This document shows positions 4,421-40,794 of a stretch of DNA of 43,081 bases, piece after piece. The stretch comes from Alphaproteobacteria bacterium. Lineage in GTDB: Bacteria > Pseudomonadota > Alphaproteobacteria > Rs-D84. The first letter of the stretch is position 1. Each line of letters starts with the position of its first letter. The notes under the pieces were generated by a model, which saw nothing but the letters and a program-made list of their open reading frames with translations, was not told the origin of the DNA and ran no database searches. The position numbers and the translations under genes are program-made. Location: positions 1-43,081 of the forward strand of contig WSMU01000003.1 in NCBI GenBank assembly GCA_013316395.1. Direction: 5' to 3'.

Positions 4421-5650
4421 ATGAAGAATATAGCGGGTGTTTTTGCAGTTTCTTTTATCGCGATTATGTCTGTGGTTGCGGCCCATGCAGATGTTGCTTC
4501 TACGGATTTGGTTGATAGACGATTTGAAGCGTTGGCTACGGTGGCAAGTACGGGCTCTTATAACGATTTGACGAATAAGCCGACAATTCCCGCGGCTCAG
4601 GTTCAGCCGGACTGGAATGCAACCACGGGTATGGGGGCGATAAAAAATAAGCCTACGTTGGGCGCGCTGGCATCGAAAGCGTCGGTTACAAGTGCGGAGA
4701 TTACAGACGGCACTATTGTAAATGCGGATATTTCCGCAACAGCCGGGATTGCGCCTTCAAAGATTAACATAGATAAGCTTACTACATATGATACCACGCA
4801 TACAGACAATGATGAGCGAATCCCTTCAGTAAAGGTGGTAGAGAGCATTGCCGCCGTATCTGCGGATGCTGCGCTTGTCGCCGCTAAGAATGTATATCAG
4901 GTTAAGTCTAATGCGAATTACCAGATGGGTTCAGCAAATGGGGCTTGGACTACGATGAGTGGTTCTCAGCAAAATGCTTTGAATTCTGGCATTACAACGG
5001 CAAAAGTAACCAAGTACGATAATTATGCCACAGGTAAGCAAGATACTTTGACCCCTGGGAGTAATGGAAATATTAAAGGGGCTGGTAGTGTGACTGTGAC
5101 TAAGGATGCCTCTGGTGTTATAACCGTATCTGGAACAGACACAAATACAGTTACAACAGCGACAACAACCGGTACCGGAAATGTTGTTTCTGCTATTACG
5201 GCAAATAACGGTGCGCTTACGGTTACAAAAGGCGTTACAGCGGCAACACCTGGTGATATTACAAATGCTATAAACGCGTTGGATGTTGCGGCATCAACCG
5301 CGGCTGGAAATGTCGTTACAAATGTTAGTCAGACAGATGGAAAAATTTCTGTAACAAAGGGAACAATAAGTGTTCCGACTGTGAATAACGCTACGCTGAC
5401 AATTAAGCAGGGGGGAGCTGTTAAGGGTACTTTTACCGCGAACCAGGCCACCGCGGCAACAATTGAGTTAACTGATAATAATACAACATATACGGCCAGC
5501 GGTTCAAATGGTGTTTCTGCATCAGTTAGTGGTACGTCGGTGAACGTATCCGGTGTATCCGCAACGCGTGATGCGGTTGGGGTGGCAAAGCTGGGAGTTA
5601 TTCCGGTTGGAACCACTGGTACGGCAACCGCTACTATTTGGGTTGAATAA
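4421..5650 (+). CDS. Secreted Thr/Gly-rich fibre-like protein 5 (copy 1)
   Basis: Signal peptide ending AHA. Contains LATVASTGSYNDLTNKPTIP, QPDWN..IKNKP and ITDGTIVNADI motifs typical of phage tail-fibre-like proteins, GNVV..I beta repeats and C-terminal ATIWVE. Confidence 0.75.
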   Translation: MKNIAGVFAVSFIAIMSVVAAHADVASTDLVDRRFEALATVASTGSYNDLTNKPTIPAAQVQPDWNATTGMGAIKNKPTLGALASKASVTSAEITDGTIVNADISATAGIAPSKINIDKLTTYDTTHTDNDERIPSVKVVESIAAVSADAALVAAKNVYQVKSNANYQMGSANGAWTTMSGSQQNALNSGITTAKVTKYDNYATGKQDTLTPGSNGNIKGAGSVTVTKDASGVITVSGTDTNTVTTATTTGTGNVVSAITANNGALTVTKGVTAATPGDITNAINALDVAASTAAGNVVTNVSQTDGKISVTKGTISVPTVNNATLTIKQGGAVKGTFTANQATAATIELTDNNTTYTASGSNGVSASVSGTSVNVSGVSATRDAVGVAKLGVIPVGTTGTATATIWVE

Positions 5651-7250: not shown

Positions 7251-8480
7251 ATGAAGAATATAGCGGGTGTTTTTGCAGTTTCTTTTATCGCGATTATGTC
7301 TGTGGTTGCGGCCCATGCAGATGTTGCTTCTACGGATTTGGTTGATAGACGATTTGAAGCGTTGGCTACGGTGGCAAGTACGGGCTCTTATAACGATTTG
7401 ACGAATAAGCCGACAATTCCCGCGGCTCAGGTTCAGCCGGACTGGAATGCAACCACGGGTATGGGGGCGATAAAAAATAAGCCTACGTTGGGCGCGCTGG
7501 CATCGAAAGCGTCGGTTACAAGTGCGGAGATTACAGACGGCACTATTGTAAATGCGGATATTTCCGCAACAGCCGGGATTGCGCCTTCAAAGATTAACAT
7601 AGATAAGCTTACTACATATGATACCACGCATACAGACAATGATGAGCGAATCCCTTCAGTAAAGGTGGTAGAGAGCATTGCCGCCGTATCTGCGGATGCT
7701 GCGCTTGTCGCCGCTAAGAATGTATATCAGGTTAAGTCTAATGCGAATTACCAGATGGGTTCAGCAAATGGGGCTTGGACTACGATGAGTGGTTCTCAGC
7801 AAAATGCTTTGAATTCTGGCATTACAACGGCAAAAGTAACCAAGTACGATAATTATGCCACAGGTAAGCAAGATACTTTGACCCCTGGGAGTAATGGAAA
7901 TATTAAAGGGGCTGGTAGTGTGACTGTGACTAAGGATGCCTCTGGTGTTATAACCGTATCTGGAACAGACACAAATACAGTTACAACAGCGACAACAACC
8001 GGTACCGGAAATGTTGTTTCTGCTATTACGGCAAATAACGGTGCGCTTACGGTTACAAAAGGCGTTACAGCGGCAACACCTGGTGATATTACAAATGCTA
8101 TAAACGCGTTGGATGTTGCGGCATCAACCGCGGCTGGAAATGTCGTTACAAATGTTAGTCAGACAGATGGAAAAATTTCTGTAACAAAGGGAACAATAAG
8201 TGTTCCGACTGTGAATAACGCTACGCTGACAATTAAGCAGGGGGGAGCTGTTAAGGGTACTTTTACCGCGAACCAGGCCACCGCGGCAACAATTGAGTTA
8301 ACTGATAATAATACAACATATACGGCCAGCGGTTCAAATGGTGTTTCTGCATCAGTTAGTGGTACGTCGGTGAACGTATCCGGTGTATCCGCAACGCGTG
8401 ATGCGGTTGGGGTGGCAAAGCTGGGAGTTATTCCGGTTGGAACCACTGGTACGGCAACCGCTACTATTTGGGTTGAATAA
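7251..8480 (+). CDS. Secreted fibre-like protein 5 (duplicate copy)
   Basis: Identical translation to 4421..5650. Confidence 0.75.
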   Translation: MKNIAGVFAVSFIAIMSVVAAHADVASTDLVDRRFEALATVASTGSYNDLTNKPTIPAAQVQPDWNATTGMGAIKNKPTLGALASKASVTSAEITDGTIVNADISATAGIAPSKINIDKLTTYDTTHTDNDERIPSVKVVESIAAVSADAALVAAKNVYQVKSNANYQMGSANGAWTTMSGSQQNALNSGITTAKVTKYDNYATGKQDTLTPGSNGNIKGAGSVTVTKDASGVITVSGTDTNTVTTATTTGTGNVVSAITANNGALTVTKGVTAATPGDITNAINALDVAASTAAGNVVTNVSQTDGKISVTKGTISVPTVNNATLTIKQGGAVKGTFTANQATAATIELTDNNTTYTASGSNGVSASVSGTSVNVSGVSATRDAVGVAKLGVIPVGTTGTATATIWVE

Positions 8481-15177: not shown

Positions 15178-15318
15178 AGTGTAGAAACAATTTGTTAAAA
15201 AGAAAAAACGGTGCCTATTCAAAAGGACCGTTTTCCTACATTGTTATTTTTAATAATTTTATCCCAGATTTTCGCTATATGTCAACCCAAAAAATTGCCG
15301 AAAAAAAACGGTGGTTTT

Positions 15319-15816
15319 ATGTTCAAGAAAGTTGTTGTGTTGGCGATTGTTGCGCTGTTGTGTTGGGAAAATAATTCGTTGGGTGGACGTTTGGTGCAAT
15401 GCTGTTTTCGAAAGAACGAGGAAGGCATATTTGCGCCTGTTACGGCGGAATCCTGCTCAAAATGTCCGCCCGGATGCAATGATTTATGCGATGAAGGGGG
15501 GCTTGACCCGATTCTGACATGTGGGGATGAATGTAAAGGGCTGACTGATTGGAGCGCCCCTAATGGAGTTTTGATAACAAAAGCTACTTATCAAACCCGC
15601 TGTAATGTTACATATTGTGAGTATAGGTGTATTGCGGGGTATTATGGACGCGGAAAAAATTGTATGGCGTGTCCAGGCTCTTTTTTGTTATCGGGAAATG
15701 GTGAGGTTGGAACCAGCAATGTGGGGGCGACACTAATAACGCAGTGCTATTCCGTATCCGGTAAAGATACATCTGGAAATTTTGTCTTTTCGCCCGCGTG
15801 TTTCTATTCGGAATAA
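15319..15816 (+). CDS. Secreted Cys-rich protein, paralogue A
   Basis: Signal peptide from ATG 15319; C-terminal CEYRC..GYYG.G..C..CP...ITQCY...D.SG.F...C.YSE module shared with two other genes. Confidence 0.75.
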   Translation: MFKKVVVLAIVALLCWENNSLGGRLVQCCFRKNEEGIFAPVTAESCSKCPPGCNDLCDEGGLDPILTCGDECKGLTDWSAPNGVLITKATYQTRCNVTYCEYRCIAGYYGRGKNCMACPGSFLLSGNGEVGTSNVGATLITQCYSVSGKDTSGNFVFSPACFYSE

Positions 15817-15847
15817 AGCCGGGGACAATCGTCCCCGGTTCATTTTT
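15817..15847. terminator. Bidirectional terminator between convergent Cys-rich genes
   Basis: AGCCGGGGAC-AATC-GTCCCCGGTT hairpin. Confidence 0.65.
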
Positions 15848-16649
15848 AATCATGATGGCAGTCATTGTTTACGATTGTAAAACTGCCTGTTTGATCGCCG
15901 TATTGCGTACCTTTGGGTATATAGCAGTCTGTTTGCAGGGTAGAGCCAGGTGCAGAAGTTGCCGGCCCCGGATAGGCTGGCCATCTGTTACAGGTTGATG
16001 TGGCTGATGTTGGTGTGCCGTAATAATGTTCCGCACAGCGATAATTGGTCGTCTGGGACCAGCCAGAAGATGCACATGTATAAATGCTTTCCTTTTCAAT
16101 CATTGGTACGTTATAGGTCGAGTCTTTCTTTGCCGTTTCCCAGTAAGTGTTTTCTGGTTTGGTGTCGATATAACATTTTTGCGTACATTTTCCGCTTATG
16201 CATATATAGCCTTTTTCGTTGTCGCATTGGTTGTTGTTGGTGCAATAGTTTGAAATTTGGAGACACCGGCCATATATTTCATTGATGTTTTTTTGACACT
16301 TAAATCCACTTACGCAATCGCTGTCGGACTGGCATGAGCATATTATATTGCTTAATACGCCTATTATACTGTTGTCGTTAAATTCTTGTAGCCCCATTGC
16401 GTTTATAAGGTTGGCCTGACATGCTGCGGTGACATTTAATGCGCAGTTGCCACCGCCCCAGCCATTTTTTGTTACCAGGCGCCAGTAGTTGTCACGATAG
16501 TTCAGGCTTTCTATGCCGTAAACATTTATGTATTTTGATGTGCATTCTGTAAAAAGGCCGCCAGGGTAATAGGTGCTGGTATCCGCGGCCCCGTGGCATG
16601 CCCCGGTTGCCAGGATGAATGCAGCGAACGCTGTTGTTATTTTTTTCAT
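15846..16649 (-). CDS. Secreted Cys-rich protein, paralogue B
   Basis: Signal peptide MKKITT..CHG; two C..D/N..C...C repeats; C-terminal YRC..YYG...C...TDCYIP....DQTG.F..NDC module; AAGGAG RBS. Confidence 0.8.
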   Translation of the reverse strand: MKKITTAFAAFILATGACHGAADTSTYYPGGLFTECTSKYINVYGIESLNYRDNYWRLVTKNGWGGGNCALNVTAACQANLINAMGLQEFNDNSIIGVLSNIICSCQSDSDCVSGFKCQKNINEIYGRCLQISNYCTNNNQCDNEKGYICISGKCTQKCYIDTKPENTYWETAKKDSTYNVPMIEKESIYTCASSGWSQTTNYRCAEHYYGTPTSATSTCNRWPAYPGPATSAPGSTLQTDCYIPKGTQYGDQTGSFTIVNNDCHHD

Positions 16650-16905
16650 TTTCTAACTCCTTGTTTGGTAAACAAAAAACCACCAAGGATTTGGTGGTCG
16701 GGGAGTTAAGAAAATCATACAACATAATGACCCCGCCAGCTTTTGGATAAACCTGTGGTATGGCTGACGGCTCCCCGACGCTATGCGGGGGGTACAATAG
16801 CGGGCGCAGAAAAATGCGCCGCATATATGCGGATTACGATGTATCGATACACCGATGTTGTATGGGATTTCTTAAGTCCCAGAACCCACATCCCTGTAGA
16901 TTCAA
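16650..16905 (-). promoter_or_regulatory. Structured 5' leader, copy 1 (target site, antisense module, terminator, anti-SD)
   Basis: Colinear homology with 39301..39567, with compensatory changes in the stems. Confidence 0.8.
16692..16779 (-). ncRNA. Candidate C4/CI-like antisense RNA, copy 1
   Basis: Closing stem GUCGGGGAG/CUCCCCGAC, internal hairpins CCGUCAGC/GCUGGCGG and GGUCAU/AUGAUU, 3' ACCA. Loop and bulge are complementary to the upstream site 16855-16880. Confidence 0.6.
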
Positions 16906-16909
16906 GGCA

Positions 16910-16938
16910 ATTATAAAAAATATGGGACTTTAAAACAA
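16910..16938 (-). promoter_or_regulatory. Sigma70 promoter of leader copy 1
   Basis: Minus-strand TTGTTT-17 nt-TATAAT directly before the conserved TTGAATC block. Confidence 0.6.
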
Positions 16939-16942
16939 TAAT

Positions 16943-16970
16943 AAAAAAACGGGGGGGGGCCCCGTTTTTT
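16943..16970 (-). terminator. Terminator after the acyl-CoA synthetase
   Basis: AAAAAAACGGGG..CCCCGTTTTTT inverted repeat with flanking A/T runs. Confidence 0.7.
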
Positions 16971-38384: not shown

Positions 38385-38768
38385 ATGGCAGTAGCAAAAA
38401 CAAAAAAGAAAGTTGTTAAGAAAGTATCGCATGGCATTGCGCATGTTGTTGCGACAAATAACAACACTCGTATCACAATCACAGACCAGTCCGGCGCCGT
38501 TTTGACATGGGCGACGGCCGGTGCGAATAACTTTAAGGGCGCCAAAAAGTCCACGCCGTATGCGGCGACGGTTGTTGCGGACGCTGTTGGCAAAAAAGTT
38601 GCCGAAATGGGTATGAAAACAGTTGACGTTCTGATGCGTGGTATCGGCCAGGGACGTGAATCCGCCGTGCGCGGTTTGGCAAACGCCGGTCTGATTGTGC
38701 AGAGCATTACGGATACAACACGTATTCCGCACAATGGCTGCCGTCCTAAAAAGGTTCGCCGCGTGTAA
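38385..38768 (+). CDS. rpsK: 30S ribosomal protein S11
   Basis: NNT.ITITD, KSTPYAA and PHNGCRP motifs. Confidence 0.99.
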   Translation: MAVAKTKKKVVKKVSHGIAHVVATNNNTRITITDQSGAVLTWATAGANNFKGAKKSTPYAATVVADAVGKKVAEMGMKTVDVLMRGIGQGRESAVRGLANAGLIVQSITDTTRIPHNGCRPKKVRRV

Positions 38769-38781
38769 ACGTGCATCTTAT

Positions 38782-38819
38782 AAAAATAACGGGGCCATGT
38801 TGCCCCGTTTTTATTTTTT
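38782..38819. terminator. Bidirectional terminator between rpsK and the inserted Cys-rich gene
   Basis: AAAAATAACGGGGC-CATGTT-GCCCCGTTTTTATTTTT. Confidence 0.75.
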
Positions 38820-39300
38820 AATCACTATAGTAACAGTCGTTTATGTATTGATAAGTGCCGCTCTGGTCCCCCATCTCGATGTCGGCGGGCTGATAGCATT
38901 CGGTAATTACACTTGCGCCCGCAGCGGCGGTTGTGCCATACATGCCGTCCGACACGGGGCAGCGCGTGCATGATGTCCCTTTGCCGTAATAGCCTGTAAA
39001 ACACCGGTATTCGCATAATGCATTTGTTGCTGTTTTTCTGCATCTTATTTGATAATGCATATTGAGGATACTTGTCCATGTGGTCTTGGGACATGCGGCT
39101 GGGCATTCCGCCGGGTCGATTATCGTGCTAATACAGCCTGCCTCGGCGCATGTTTCACTACTGCTGCGACAGCAGGTGGGTTCGCCTGGCTTAATCGGGC
39201 AGTGAACAATGTATATGTTGTCGCAGGTGCGGGCAATGGCATTGTTGGCAAGTATAATGCCAAAGGCGGCTCCGCATAATAAGGTAATCGTTTTTTTCAT
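38818..39300 (-). CDS. Secreted Cys-rich protein, paralogue C
   Basis: Signal peptide from ATG 39300 (MKKTITLL..AIA); CEYRC..GYYGKG..C.RCP...ITECY...DQSG.Y..NDCYYSD module. Confidence 0.8.
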   Translation of the reverse strand: MKKTITLLCGAAFGIILANNAIARTCDNIYIVHCPIKPGEPTCCRSSSETCAEAGCISTIIDPAECPAACPKTTWTSILNMHYQIRCRKTATNALCEYRCFTGYYGKGTSCTRCPVSDGMYGTTAAAGASVITECYQPADIEMGDQSGTYQYINDCYYSD

Positions 39301-39567
39301 GCTTTCAAATCCCTGTCTTTGTGTTAAACAAAATGCCGCCATGGAATTGGCGGCCGGGGATTTCAGAAAATCATAACATAAAATGACCCCGTGGCTTTTG
39401 GATTAAACCTGTTATATAGCCACGGATCCCCGACCGGTTAAAATCGGGTGATATAAAACACACGGCGCATTATTGCGCCGACGCATTTTGTCGGATTCAG
39501 TGCGTATCATCGCACAGTTATGTTATGGGATTTCTGAGGTCCCTGAGCCAACATCCCTGTTGATTCA
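39301..39567 (-). promoter_or_regulatory. Structured 5' leader, copy 2
   Basis: Homologous to 16650..16905 with covarying stems. Confidence 0.8.
39348..39435 (-). ncRNA. Candidate C4/CI-like antisense RNA, copy 2
   Basis: Closing stem GGUCGGGGAU/AUCCCCGGCC followed by GCCA; hairpins CCGUGGCU/AGCCACGG and GGUCAU/AUGAUU; complementary to 39518-39543. Confidence 0.6.
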
Positions 39568-39573
39568 AAAAGA

Positions 39574-39602
39574 AGTATATAAATTGTGTGTGCTTAAGTA
39601 AA
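39574..39602 (-). promoter_or_regulatory. Sigma70 promoter of leader copy 2
   Basis: Minus-strand TTTACT-17 nt-TATACT at a similar position relative to TTGAATC as in copy 1. Confidence 0.55.
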
Positions 39603-39765: not shown

Positions 39766-40794
39766 ATGATTGAAAAAAATTGGATGACTTTGATTAAGCC
39801 GAAAAAGCTGAATATCAAAGTGGATGAGCATAATCCAAACCTGGCAACATTGGTTGCCGAACCCCTGGAAAAAGGATATGGTTTAACATTGGGTACCGCA
39901 TTGCGTCGCGTATTATTGTCGTCGTTGCAGGGTTGCGCACCTATTTATATCAAGATTGACGGGGTACAACACGAATTTTCTTCGCTGCAGGGTATTCGCG
40001 AAGATGTAACTGATATCATCCTGAACCTGAAGGGTGTTTATTTCAAAGCCCTGACCGAAGGTCAGCACAAGGCCATACTGAAAGTAAAAGGCCCGGCCGT
40101 TGTTACCGCGGGGATGATTGAAACATCCGGCAGCGTTGAGGTTATGAACAAAGATGTTGAAATCTGCACACTGGACAAGGGCGCATCTTTGGATATGGAA
40201 ATAACATTGGCCACAGGTCGTGGTTATGTTCCGGCATCTGCGCATGCAGACGGGCTGCCGCTGGGTGTGATTCCGGTAGATTCTATTTTCTCGCCGATTT
40301 TGAACGTTGCAACAGAAGTTTCTGCAACCCGTGTCGGCCAATCTACGGATTTTGACAAACTGGAACTGACTGTTAAAACAAACGGCAGCGTTTCGCCCGA
40401 AGATGCGATTGCATACGCCGCGCGTATTTTGACAGACCAGTTGGTTGTATTTATCAACTTCGAAGACCCGGCGCAGATTAACGCTCCGACCGAAGAAGAG
40501 AAGGCGAAAGACGCATTGCCGTTTGACCCGAAATTGCTGAAGCATGTTGATGAGCTGGAACTGTCTGTTCGTGCAAATAACTGCCTGAAGAATGACAAGA
40601 TTAACTGGCTGGGTGAACTGGTCCAGAAGACAGAAGCCGATATGCTAAAAACACCGAACTTTGGCCGCAAGTCCTTGAATGAAATCAAGGTTCAATTGGA
40701 GGCCATGGGCCTGGGCTTGGGTATGGAAGTACCGGGCTGGCCGCCGGAAAATATCGCGGAATTGGCGAAAAAATACGAAGACCCTTATAAATAA
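39766..40794 (+). CDS. rpoA: RNA polymerase alpha subunit
   Basis: EPLE.GYG.TLG.ALRR.LLSS, LELSVR..NCL and [12 protein letters not shown] motifs; alphaproteobacterial WPPENI tail. Confidence 0.99.

Follow-up and report, generated by a model that had tools for sequence, protein, structure and literature searches.

Copy-specific recognition sequences in an expanded family of c4-type RNA leaders from a small alphaproteobacterial genome

RNAs of the c4 type are known mainly as single-copy phage immunity devices. The present work concerns a family of c4-type leaders that came to attention in front of two paralogous genes, B and C, on a stretch of 43,081 nucleotides (nt) from an alphaproteobacterium of GTDB lineage Rs-D84 (the window hereafter, i.e. 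positions 1 to 43,081 of contig WSMU01000003.1, assembly GCA_013316395.1). Several described systems come close to it. In the sections of PMC4825925 on these RNAs, P4 CI pairs with seqA and seqC, the P4 target lying upstream of the processed RNA, and the read-through transcript on which IsrK acts in trans is its own and has two alternative structures. The small RNA (sRNA) sRNA-Xcc1 is known from integron cassettes of Xanthomonas, from APSE phages and from islands of Xylella, where five copies lie in tandem; its multi-copy and tandem occurrence in Xylella is reported in the part of PMC12189769 devoted to it. Group 1 of Acinetobacter baumannii gathers many chromosomal C4-like sRNAs with variable recognition loops; longer transcripts give rise to them by processing at a GGW motif (PMC5320573, in its account of this group). 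Nine Brt RNAs of Bartonella, structured, genus-specific and ~200 nt long, have a terminator-like end before a small and poorly transcribed XRE-type gene, trp (PMC5387305, in its description of the loci). As far as these portions of the literature go, the c4 clan, multi-copy chromosomal C4-like sRNAs, tandem sRNA-Xcc1 and the Brt/Trp architecture are all known already. The initial annotation of the locus had put forward a new kind of system; the multi-copy precedents in A. baumannii and Xylella, as the same parts of PMC5320573 and PMC12189769 present them, speak against that claim.

The leaders of B and C are members of a lineage-specific, expanded c4-type family related to P1 a1b1 plus c4, P4 CI, IsrK and sRNA-Xcc1. 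The regions upstream of the open reading frames (ORFs) B (15846-16649, minus strand) and C (38818-39300, minus strand) are colinear homologues, with 335 alignment columns and a mean column identity of 80%. The seven elements listed by the initial annotation on the minus strand, from promoter to ribosome-binding site (RBS), were found in both at the places given for them (Table 1). The 5' element of B, TTGAATCTACAGGGATGT, differs from that of C by a single base. The B and C modules (~91 nt) fold as a closing stem of 9-10 base pairs (bp) and two hairpins, leaving unpaired the loop of hairpin 2 (L2) and the 3' junction strand (J). These unpaired parts had been proposed to match a target upstream in their own leader. 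Indeed, they are exact complements of target 2 (T2) and target 1 (T1), respectively, over 10 and 8 nt in B and 10 and 7 nt in C. The cognate duplexes reach -17.9 and -17.4 kcal/mol, as compared to -11.5 and -5.9 kcal/mol for the B/C cross combinations. The 256-nt B leader (16650-16905) is identical in a related strain, in which the 804-nt B ORF has 9-10 differences.

The signals at the two ends of the leaders are less clear-cut. The sigma70 promoter proposed in front of both genes stands in part: by eye, B has a perfect TATAAT as -10 and a weak -35, and a consensus promoter scan of the B region found none, the B site being under its threshold, while the promoter-like sites of C are not above chance (3 found in the region vs 2.0 expected). 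Hexamers resembling TTGCAA and TATAAT are seen by eye at the equivalent place in most other copies. As to the terminator-like hairpins of the B and C regions, shuffled sequence yields 0.5-0.7 per region.

Further copies, which the initial annotation had expected a covariance model to find, are numerous. The genome searched comprises 824,636 bases in 53 contigs and is 93% complete. At Rfam gathering thresholds, a tRNA-Pro is the sole match in the window, and a search of the whole genome with sRNA-Xcc1 (RF02221) gives 8 further sub-threshold places beyond B and C. To note, the modules were also considered as tRNAs, and ARAGORN calls none of them a tRNA. A covariance model (R1) built from 10 copies (B, C and eight others) scores B at 47.2 bits and C at 58.3 bits and returns 57 matches in the genome at E <= 1, 44 of which are strong and on the sense strand (E <= 1.2e-5). 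These 44 and three weak matches of like anatomy were analysed, 10 antisense echoes being dropped. The resulting 47 copies in a 0.82-Mb genome amount to about one per 18 kb, and the window holds B and C only.

In the same genus, 23 of 24 other sampled genomes carry the family, with 2-52 R1 matches apiece. Weaker R1 matches occur in 6/16 genomes from other families of the order and, at 1-4 per genome, in 9 of the 149 genomes of other families in an even class-wide sample. Both upstream targets lie at the expected places in six of the eight class-wide loci inspected, and several downstream ORFs begin, by eye, in a signal-peptide-like manner. An exact-pattern scan of species-representative genomes gave at least 116 stretches. 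Among the 80 stretches listed, nearly all come from gut metagenome-assembled genomes (MAGs) titled Alphaproteobacteria, Candidatus Enterousia, Rickettsiales or proteobacterium, and four bear odd titles (Muribaculaceae twice, Bacteroides fragilis and Leptolyngbya). PMC12306168, in its text on one such gut group, reports reduced genomes of <1 Mbp in animal guts, of ~0.8 Mb and with a coding density of about 90%; the genome of the window probably belongs to this group, and that text contains 0 occurrences of 'RNA'. A phage origin was considered and rejected: the viral contigs scanned for the family pattern gave 0 matches, blastn against phage and plasmid collections found no match to a family sequence, and PHROGs returned a weak generic helix-turn-helix (HTH) for 4/10 small proteins encoded behind units.

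Some copies are found in arrays. At C12:268-565 (minus strand), four stand-alone modules follow each other head to tail with gaps of 0-1 nt, in the manner of a tRNA operon. At C24:15498-15950 (plus strand), three stand-alone modules are spaced 113-120 nt apart, each behind its own promoter-like site, and the junction sequence of one of them recurs in the leader of the gene that comes next (C24:16292). Three units are followed by one and the same ~80-nt sequence (C12:1-80, C45:1-80 and C47:14330-14480), two of these places being contig ends. Arrays of units thus appear to break the assembly, and the true copy number may therefore exceed 47.

Across the family, a unit reads from its 5' end as a promoter-like site, a 5' hairpin (P0), a 4-bp hairpin carrying T1, then T2 and a spacer. 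The 4-bp hairpin is mostly GAGG/CCUC, with T1 in its 8-nt loop and T2 immediately 3' of it. The spacer between T2 and the module holds 0-2 hairpins, followed by a short element resembling the 3' arm of the closing stem. The module itself, 74-92 nt long, is a three-way junction ordered as closing stem, hairpin 1, hairpin 2 with loop L2, junction strand J and closing-stem 3' arm; most modules begin with GGT or GGC. The 5' arm of a terminator-like hairpin overlaps the last 2-4 nt of the closing stem and a T run comes next. A Shine-Dalgarno sequence (SD) and one ORF usually follow, 34-80 nt 3' of the module, and in at least 26 units terminator and RBS stand directly before the gene.

The module fold is backed by covariation. 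Over 94 distinct sequences, gathered with a search pattern that holds part of the closing stem constant, 99.1% of the alignment cells are paired, 14 of 19 pairs vary on both sides, and 0/500 shuffles reach the observed values. All five pairs of hairpin 2 and four of nine in the closing stem vary on both sides. A 74-nt class of modules (e.g. L007:1501-1574, minus strand) has a hairpin-1 loop, GAAUAUAUUGAAUAAG, that is nearly invariant over copies and genomes yet unpaired in both predicted folds (see below), which suggests a protein-binding or tertiary-contact site. RNase P RNA is found in the genome (189 bits), and by analogy with the processed members of the clan RNase P would generate the 5' end of the module; modules in the head-to-tail arrays would require an endonuclease for their release.

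To score the copy-specific match between leader and module, the two best exact complements in colinear order were taken between the J/L2 region and the upstream region and added up, a sum of at least 13 counting as a pass. In this genome, 37/47 cognate combinations pass, against 43/2162 non-cognate ones. Of the ten cognate failures, seven are array modules without a leader of their own, one is a degenerate copy and another, C28:142, is imperfect (score 9); the tenth, C12:79, has both targets as 6-nt matches (score 12). Outside this genome, 92 units from other MAGs were drawn from 97/98 matches, one partial match, units with incomplete flanks and identical units being excluded; cognate pairs pass in 66/92 and non-cognate ones in 196/8372, and the 66 passing units display 62 distinct recognition pairs. 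The exact-match score replaced an RNAduplex comparison of whole half-modules, which was noisy (cognate first in 18/47).

The larger alignment in which the initial annotation expected antisense and target to covary bears this out. In 35 sequences of constant spacing, the two long-range helices T1-J and T2-L2 are 98.2% and 89.1% paired and 11 of their 18 pairs vary on both sides. Sliding the helices by 1-3 columns lowers the pairing to 34-49%, and 0/500 shuffles reach the observed values. A small element upstream of the module, a candidate partner of the closing-stem 5' arm, is 76.6% paired with that arm, with no compensatory change and an alignment in poor register at this place. Because of the cognate and non-cognate counts together with the compensatory changes, the unit-specific pairing of leader and module is, as judged from sequence comparison, real and selected. 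A genome-wide search for colinear trans targets gave, besides a unit's own leader, background-level sites only. By sense-strand label, the own leader is among the six best-scoring sites for 20/47 modules; the other sites listed score in the background range, many of them being the antisense strand of other modules. Two of the seven stand-alone array modules have a strong candidate target in another leader.

These long-range helices and the module fold exclude each other in the predicted structures. The minimum free energy (MFE) structure of leader plus module is a nested, leader-paired fold in 36 of 38 complete units. In it, T1 pairs with J, extended by pairing of the 5' arm of the target hairpin with the first bases of the closing-stem 3' arm, and L2 is taken up by T2; neither the closing stem nor hairpin 2 forms. 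The module fold is 0-17.5 kcal/mol less stable (median 6.6). Since hairpin 2 and the closing stem covary and the long-range helices do so too, both folds appear, from the alignments, to be under selection. To note, pairing cores of 5 bp (T1 loop with J) and 6 bp (T2 with L2) do not clash with the folded module, so that the counts would also allow T1 and T2 to engage the folded module in a kissing or pseudoknot arrangement.

A bound partner was mimicked in silico by blocking T1 and T2 in the partition function of 36 units. The probability of the closing stem then rises from 0.00 to a mean of 0.55, reaching at least 0.8 in 17 units, and that of the terminator stem falls from a mean of 0.93 to 0.63, with values of 0.5 or less in 17 units, one of which (C45:80) was already at 0.03 before blocking. 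The closing stem goes from 0 to 0.81 in B and from 0 to 0.39 in C.

Together, these features lead us to favor, with moderate confidence, a locus-specific feedback switch in which a free module would act on transcripts bearing the same address. Each cassette is self-contained, with a putative promoter of its own, the T1/T2 leader, the module, an intrinsic terminator and, usually, an SD and a single gene. In a first state (A), the precursor would be self-masked and inert: the T1-J and T2-L2 pairs would be in place and the terminator intact, while the module would lack its closing stem and hairpin 2. In a second state (B), the module would be folded and resemble an RNase P substrate, with J and L2 exposed. 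Free module, either released by processing or encoded by the stand-alone copies, would occupy in trans T1 and T2 of a nascent RNA of the same address and shift it from the first state to the second. Such a shift would alter terminator read-through, ribosome access or both, giving each gene its own feedback switch. As to its sign, equilibrium folding leans toward activation, and in B and C control of translation may matter more than termination.

A stronger version of this switch, autocatalytic and made of RNA only, with ON and OFF states and a private address per unit, is decidedly doubtful. OFF would be the self-masked, terminated transcript; free module would open transcripts of the same address, leading to expression and to more module, and the stand-alone array modules would serve as master inputs. 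If it were true, a gut symbiont of 0.8 Mb could, by means of dozens of mutually orthogonal addresses, heritably switch individual Cys-rich secreted or surface proteins and small regulators without any DNA change, a bacterial, RNA-based counterpart to variant-surface-protein switching.

Several results weigh against the trans-acting feedback switch or against its c4 ancestry. The initial annotation had suggested a comparison with the Rfam models C4 and c4-a1b1. No match was obtained: neither C4 (RF01695, gathering 45 bits) nor c4-a1b1 (RF03163, 46.7 bits) matches B, C or a leader of the short class at E <= 10, and the best C4 score in the whole genome is 12.5 bits at an unrelated place. In the positive control, P1 scores 68.8 bits with C4 and 51 bits with c4-a1b1; R1 gives P1 c4 7.8 bits. 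The RF02221 scores (29.5 bits and E 0.003 for B, 40.5 bits and E 7.6e-6 for C, 29-45 over ten copies with 44.7 as the best) all lie under the gathering threshold of 53. The 3' RCCA expected of a processed module holds for C, in which GCCA directly follows the stem; B has an extra C (C-ACCA), and in the family RCCA follows the stem in 6/47 copies, RCC forming the tail in 29/47. Hfq was not found in the 93%-complete assembly. The mouse-gut RNA runs containing the stretch, of which four were examined, give 30-kb contigs of flat depth that cannot show transcripts. All folding results are equilibrium models and not co-transcriptional ones, and the terminator barely moves on blocking in B (0.95 to 0.81) and C (0.98 to 0.91).

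The remaining adverse points concern targets. Family-wide, complementarity 3' of the module is at chance level, i.e. no downstream target of the a2/b2 type is seen, and the complementarity of a module to its own RBS region shows a weak trend, at a median rank of 6 of 25 (p = 0.04, which becomes p = 0.10 when the stem arm is left out). In B alone, the RBS region and the junction strand with the 3' arm reach -12.6 kcal/mol (rank 1 of 25), in agreement with a match of 13 of 14 seen by eye. Five of the seven array modules have no convincing target, and the copies C28:142 and C45:9994 are target-less as well.

Among the alternatives, a purely cis-acting structured leader (an attenuator, a thermosensor, or a switch responding to a ligand or protein) would make T1-J and T2-L2 helices of one fold of the untranslated region. 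The module would never be released, and its sequences would be copy-specific since only pairing, and not sequence, is selected. This would agree with the prevalence of the nested fold as MFE structure, whose helices hold most of the compensatory changes, with the failure of trans targets to rise above background, and with the make-up of most units as single-gene cassettes having their own promoter, terminator and RBS; the Brt RNAs upstream of XRE genes have, in the relevant part of PMC5387305, been proposed to be riboswitch-like. We nonetheless regard it as unlikely. Hairpin 2 and the closing stem covary although they do not exist in the nested fold, seven modules stand alone head to tail without a leader target, and the module matches a free sRNA family, sRNA-Xcc1, from end to end. 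Furthermore, the number of distinct recognition pairs between nearly invariant flanks looks like diversifying addressing, not helix drift.

Alternatively, the modules might be trans-acting sRNAs with targets elsewhere, either host mRNAs or, as an immunity function, phages and mobile elements, T1 and T2 masking or chaperoning them until processing. This is quite improbable in view of the search results: the own leader ranks among the six best sites for many modules and the other listed sites are at background, and neither the viral contigs nor the phage and plasmid collections gave a match. The steady placement before a gene, with terminator and RBS in at least 26 units, also argues for control of that gene. 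Conversely, the predicted self-masking of the precursor and the existence of stand-alone modules would suit it, and the A. baumannii C4-like sRNAs are proposed, in the passages of PMC5320573 on their function, to act against bacterial or phage RNAs. A selfish or decaying repeat without host regulatory role, whether a remnant of phage immunity or a mobile cassette, could explain that cassettes are accessory (the C gene occurs at its site in this genome only, a site of 137 to >1500 nt in 30 genus members), that copy number ranges from 2 to 52 per genome and that C45:9994 is degenerate with a 69-residue remnant behind it, but it is very improbable, as compensatory change maintains both pairing partners in most copies, the B leader is invariant between strains that differ in the B ORF, units retain promoter, terminator, SD and intact ORF, and ~47 useless units of 200 nt would be unlikely in genomes of 0.8 Mb and ~90% coding density such as those in the PMC12306168 text on the gut group.

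The genes behind the units fall into more than the class of exported proteins to which the initial annotation had linked the leaders. That link holds for 11/47 units, which precede ORFs of 110-373 residues with signal-peptide-like N-termini and 2.7-10.7% Cys (the proteome value being 1.5%, from rough ORF calls); nine of these were flagged by script, and in two the ORF start had been over-extended into the leader. It does not cover the 14 units that precede ORFs of 62-119 residues, nor the seven stand-alone modules, and 10 of the 21 ORFs of the Cys-rich families are without a leader. The degenerate copy C45:9994 precedes a 69-residue truncated remnant of such an ORF. A 201-residue paralogue of B and C with 8.5% Cys (15211-15816, plus strand) is convergent to B, directly after the FabF-like gene, and has no unit.

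Six of the 11 secreted-type proteins, B and C included, share a C-terminal domain of ~65-80 residues with the pattern C..C..GYYG...C..CP...G.TT...CY.P.G..F.D.TG.G.Y...CYY, which gives weak, sub-threshold matches to Cys-rich modules of eukaryote type (Dickkopf_N, laminin EGF and TNFR-like). For 10 of the secreted proteins, B included, no Pfam family scores above cut-off, and a search of the ESM Atlas with the unit-associated secreted proteins gave no usable match. The nine homologues found for proteins with the shared domain are all hypothetical. The AlphaFold2 model of the C protein has a mean predicted local distance difference test (pLDDT) score of 48, too poor for use in a fold search. Among the small ORFs, an XRE-type HTH is found, sub-threshold, in 7 of the 10 scanned. 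The remaining units lie before very short ORFs, before nothing clear, at contig ends, or stand alone (seven, in arrays). In at least 12 units, the gene following the single downstream ORF is convergent (from rough ORF calls), which makes these units one-gene cassettes.

Table 1. Positions of the leader elements of B and C in the window, with the corresponding elements of the annotated phage P1 record
Feature	Position	Strand	Details and basis
B leader, extent	16650-16938	-	
B promoter-like site	16910-16938	-	-35 TTGTTT 16933-16938, 17-nt spacer, -10 TATAAT 16910-16915; read by eye
B 5' element, forms hairpin P0	16882-16905	-	TTGAATCTACAGGGATGT at 16888-16905; paired in MFE fold
B 4-bp hairpin GGGA/UCCC	16864-16880	-	loop is target 1, TTAAGAAA (16868-16875); equivalent of P1 a1
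B target 2, CATACAACAT	16855-16864	-	single-stranded hairpin tail; equivalent of P1 b1
B spacer	16780-16854	-	variable hairpins (CCGCAT/ATGCGG, GCGCA/TGCGC), hairpin at 16819-16832; C-rich just before module; sequence and folds
B c4/sRNA-Xcc1-like module	16689-16779	-	5' arm 16771-16779, hairpin 1, hairpin 2, 3' arm 16697-16705
B hairpin-2 loop	16716-16725	-	10 nt, exact pairing with 16855-16864
B junction strand	16706-16713	-	8 nt, exact pairing with 16868-16875
B module tail CACCA	16692-16696	-	
B intrinsic-terminator-like hairpin and T run	16672-16699	-	hairpin 16678-16699; 5' arm shares last closing-stem bases
B SD and ORF	15846-16660	-	SD GGAG 16657-16660, start codon 16647-16649; 267 residues, signal-peptide-like N-terminus, 7.1% Cys
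C leader, extent	39301-39602	-	
C promoter-like site TTTACT-17-TATACT	39574-39602	-	9/12 consensus matches
C 5' element TTGAATCAACAGGGATGT	39551-39568	-	sequence and B/C alignment
C hairpin GGGA/UCCC with targets	39518-39543	-	hairpin 39527-39543; loop target 1 TCAGAAA (39531-39537), exact 7-nt complement
C target 2, CATAACATAA	39518-39527	-	exact 10-nt complement of C's own module
C module	39344-39435	-	tail GCCA
C hairpin-2 recognition loop	39372-39381	-	10 nt, exact pairing with 39518-39527
C junction strand	39363-39369	-	7 nt, exact pairing with 39531-39537
C terminator-like hairpin	39335-39354	-	followed by T run
C SD-like site and ORF	38818-39314	-	AGGGA 39310-39314, start codon 39298-39300; 160 residues, signal-peptide-like N-terminus, 10% Cys
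P1 promoter P1c4			precedes a1
P1 a1	48255-48261		
P1 b1	48269-48276		
P1 c4	48343-48419		
P1 a2	48423-48429		
P1 b2	48452-48459		
P1 icd	from 48470		

The neighbours of B (genes for FabF-like, AMP-binding and YceG proteins, and a tRNA-Pro) and of C (S13, S11, RpoA and L17) were checked; as the initial annotation had it, no phage genes flank either copy, and there is no icd/ant or antirepressor context. The C cassette (minus strand) lies antisense between rpsK (38385-38765) and rpoA (39766-40791), within the ribosomal-protein/alpha operon. Over 30 genus members, the distance from rpsK (S11) to rpoA is 137-1352 nt in 13 and beyond 1.5 kb in 17; R1 matches occur at this site in 2/30, one of them weak. 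The stretch 16944-16970, which separates the gene of the AMP-binding enzyme from the promoter of B, is a terminator that works in both directions and has a homopolymeric G/C stem (AAAAAACGGGG CCCCC CCCCGTTTTTT). In the related strain, it differs by three substitutions and a one-base deletion, the B leader being unchanged. Elsewhere in the window, two ORFs of 409 residues (4421-5650 and 7251-8480) with an identical set of flanking ORFs, spaced by 2830 bases, suggest a direct duplication of ~2.8 kb; the 409-residue ORF has no Pfam family.

No description of this leader family was found in the open-access literature. New here are a divergent c4 branch that goes unnoticed at the present Rfam thresholds, its density, its distribution among gut Alphaproteobacteria of reduced genome, an upstream target that has been both kept and diversified, the predicted self-masked precursor, and the link to Cys-rich secreted and XRE-like genes. 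A c4 device with its target region intact, each copy with a two-part address of its own, is the most abundant regulatory element of this reduced genome. The units front the two gene classes likeliest to take part in interactions with a host or partner, namely orphan Cys-rich secreted proteins and small XRE-like proteins, and offer a lead on gene regulation in uncultured gut Alphaproteobacteria. With more than 60 orthogonal pairs of RNA-RNA addresses built on a single scaffold, they also amount to a natural library, and the predicted self-masked precursor with its two covarying folds provides a testable case.

The likeness to the Bartonella Brt RNAs, compared by their described architecture only, is that of an alphaproteobacterial leader family before small XRE-type genes; the Brt copies are 74-100% identical, and the parts of PMC5387305 describing them mention no address-like variable sites. 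The A. baumannii sRNAs match the Rfam C4 motif, unlike the modules described here, and the sections of PMC5320573 on these sRNAs do not describe cognate upstream targets, a self-masked precursor or a link to a downstream gene. The mode of action proposed for the family would resemble that of IsrK and P4 CI as presented in the corresponding sections of PMC4825925, in which an RNA made from the 5' portion of an operon transcript acts back on the RNAs of its own locus and controls termination or translation. However, IsrK is, in that account, a target-bearing leader ending at a terminator before the downstream part, whereas here the terminator follows the module, and both IsrK and P4 CI are single-copy elements of prophages or satellites, in contrast to the many copies found here outside a phage context. 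The isrK model has no match on the leaders' strand in B and C and none in a short-class leader, its sole row for B and C being 14.3 bits on the opposite strand of C (E = 1). The same model matches the a1-b1 part of P1 (48230-48311) at 35 bits, sub-threshold, which agrees with the view, already in print, that IsrK is similar to the target-bearing seqA region and not to the processed RNA.

No Rfam family other than sRNA-Xcc1 aligns end to end with the modules (model positions 1-87), and the fold of sRNA-Xcc1 is the same, the 74-nt class differing from it by the lack of the apical part of hairpin 1. Self-addressed upstream targets or a role as leader of secreted-protein genes are not described for sRNA-Xcc1 in the part of PMC12189769 devoted to it. 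The closest architecture is that of the immI locus of P1 and P7 (clan CL00128, with C4 RF01695 and c4-a1b1 RF03163), in which specificity resides, as here, in two short variable stretches. The C4-like architecture proposed by the initial annotation is confirmed at this level, the topology agreeing with the annotated P1 record, with the fold and with the Rfam consensus. When folded, P1 c4 has a long closing stem that encloses hairpins 1 and 2; the loop of hairpin 2 contains b', and the 3' junction strand contains a'. The modules are likewise three-way junctions with recognition in the hairpin-2 loop and the 3' junction strand. In the c4-a1b1 consensus, a first hairpin is followed by a 4-bp one whose 8-nt loop holds the a1 target, and the leaders here have a 5' hairpin, a 4-bp hairpin with target 1 and target 2 next to it, both complementary to RNA further downstream. 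The order of elements is therefore identical in P1 a1/b1 plus c4 and in the units, T1 corresponding to a1, J to a', T2 to b1 and L2 to b'. The differences are as follows: the closing stem has 17 bp in P1 and 9-10 bp here; P1 has a2/b2 downstream over the RBS, a target with no counterpart here; the MFE structure of the P1 precursor keeps c4 folded, whereas the precursor is predicted to be self-masked in nearly all complete units here; icd/ant are missing here; and an intrinsic terminator stands directly after a module that this genome carries in 47 copies with differing addresses.

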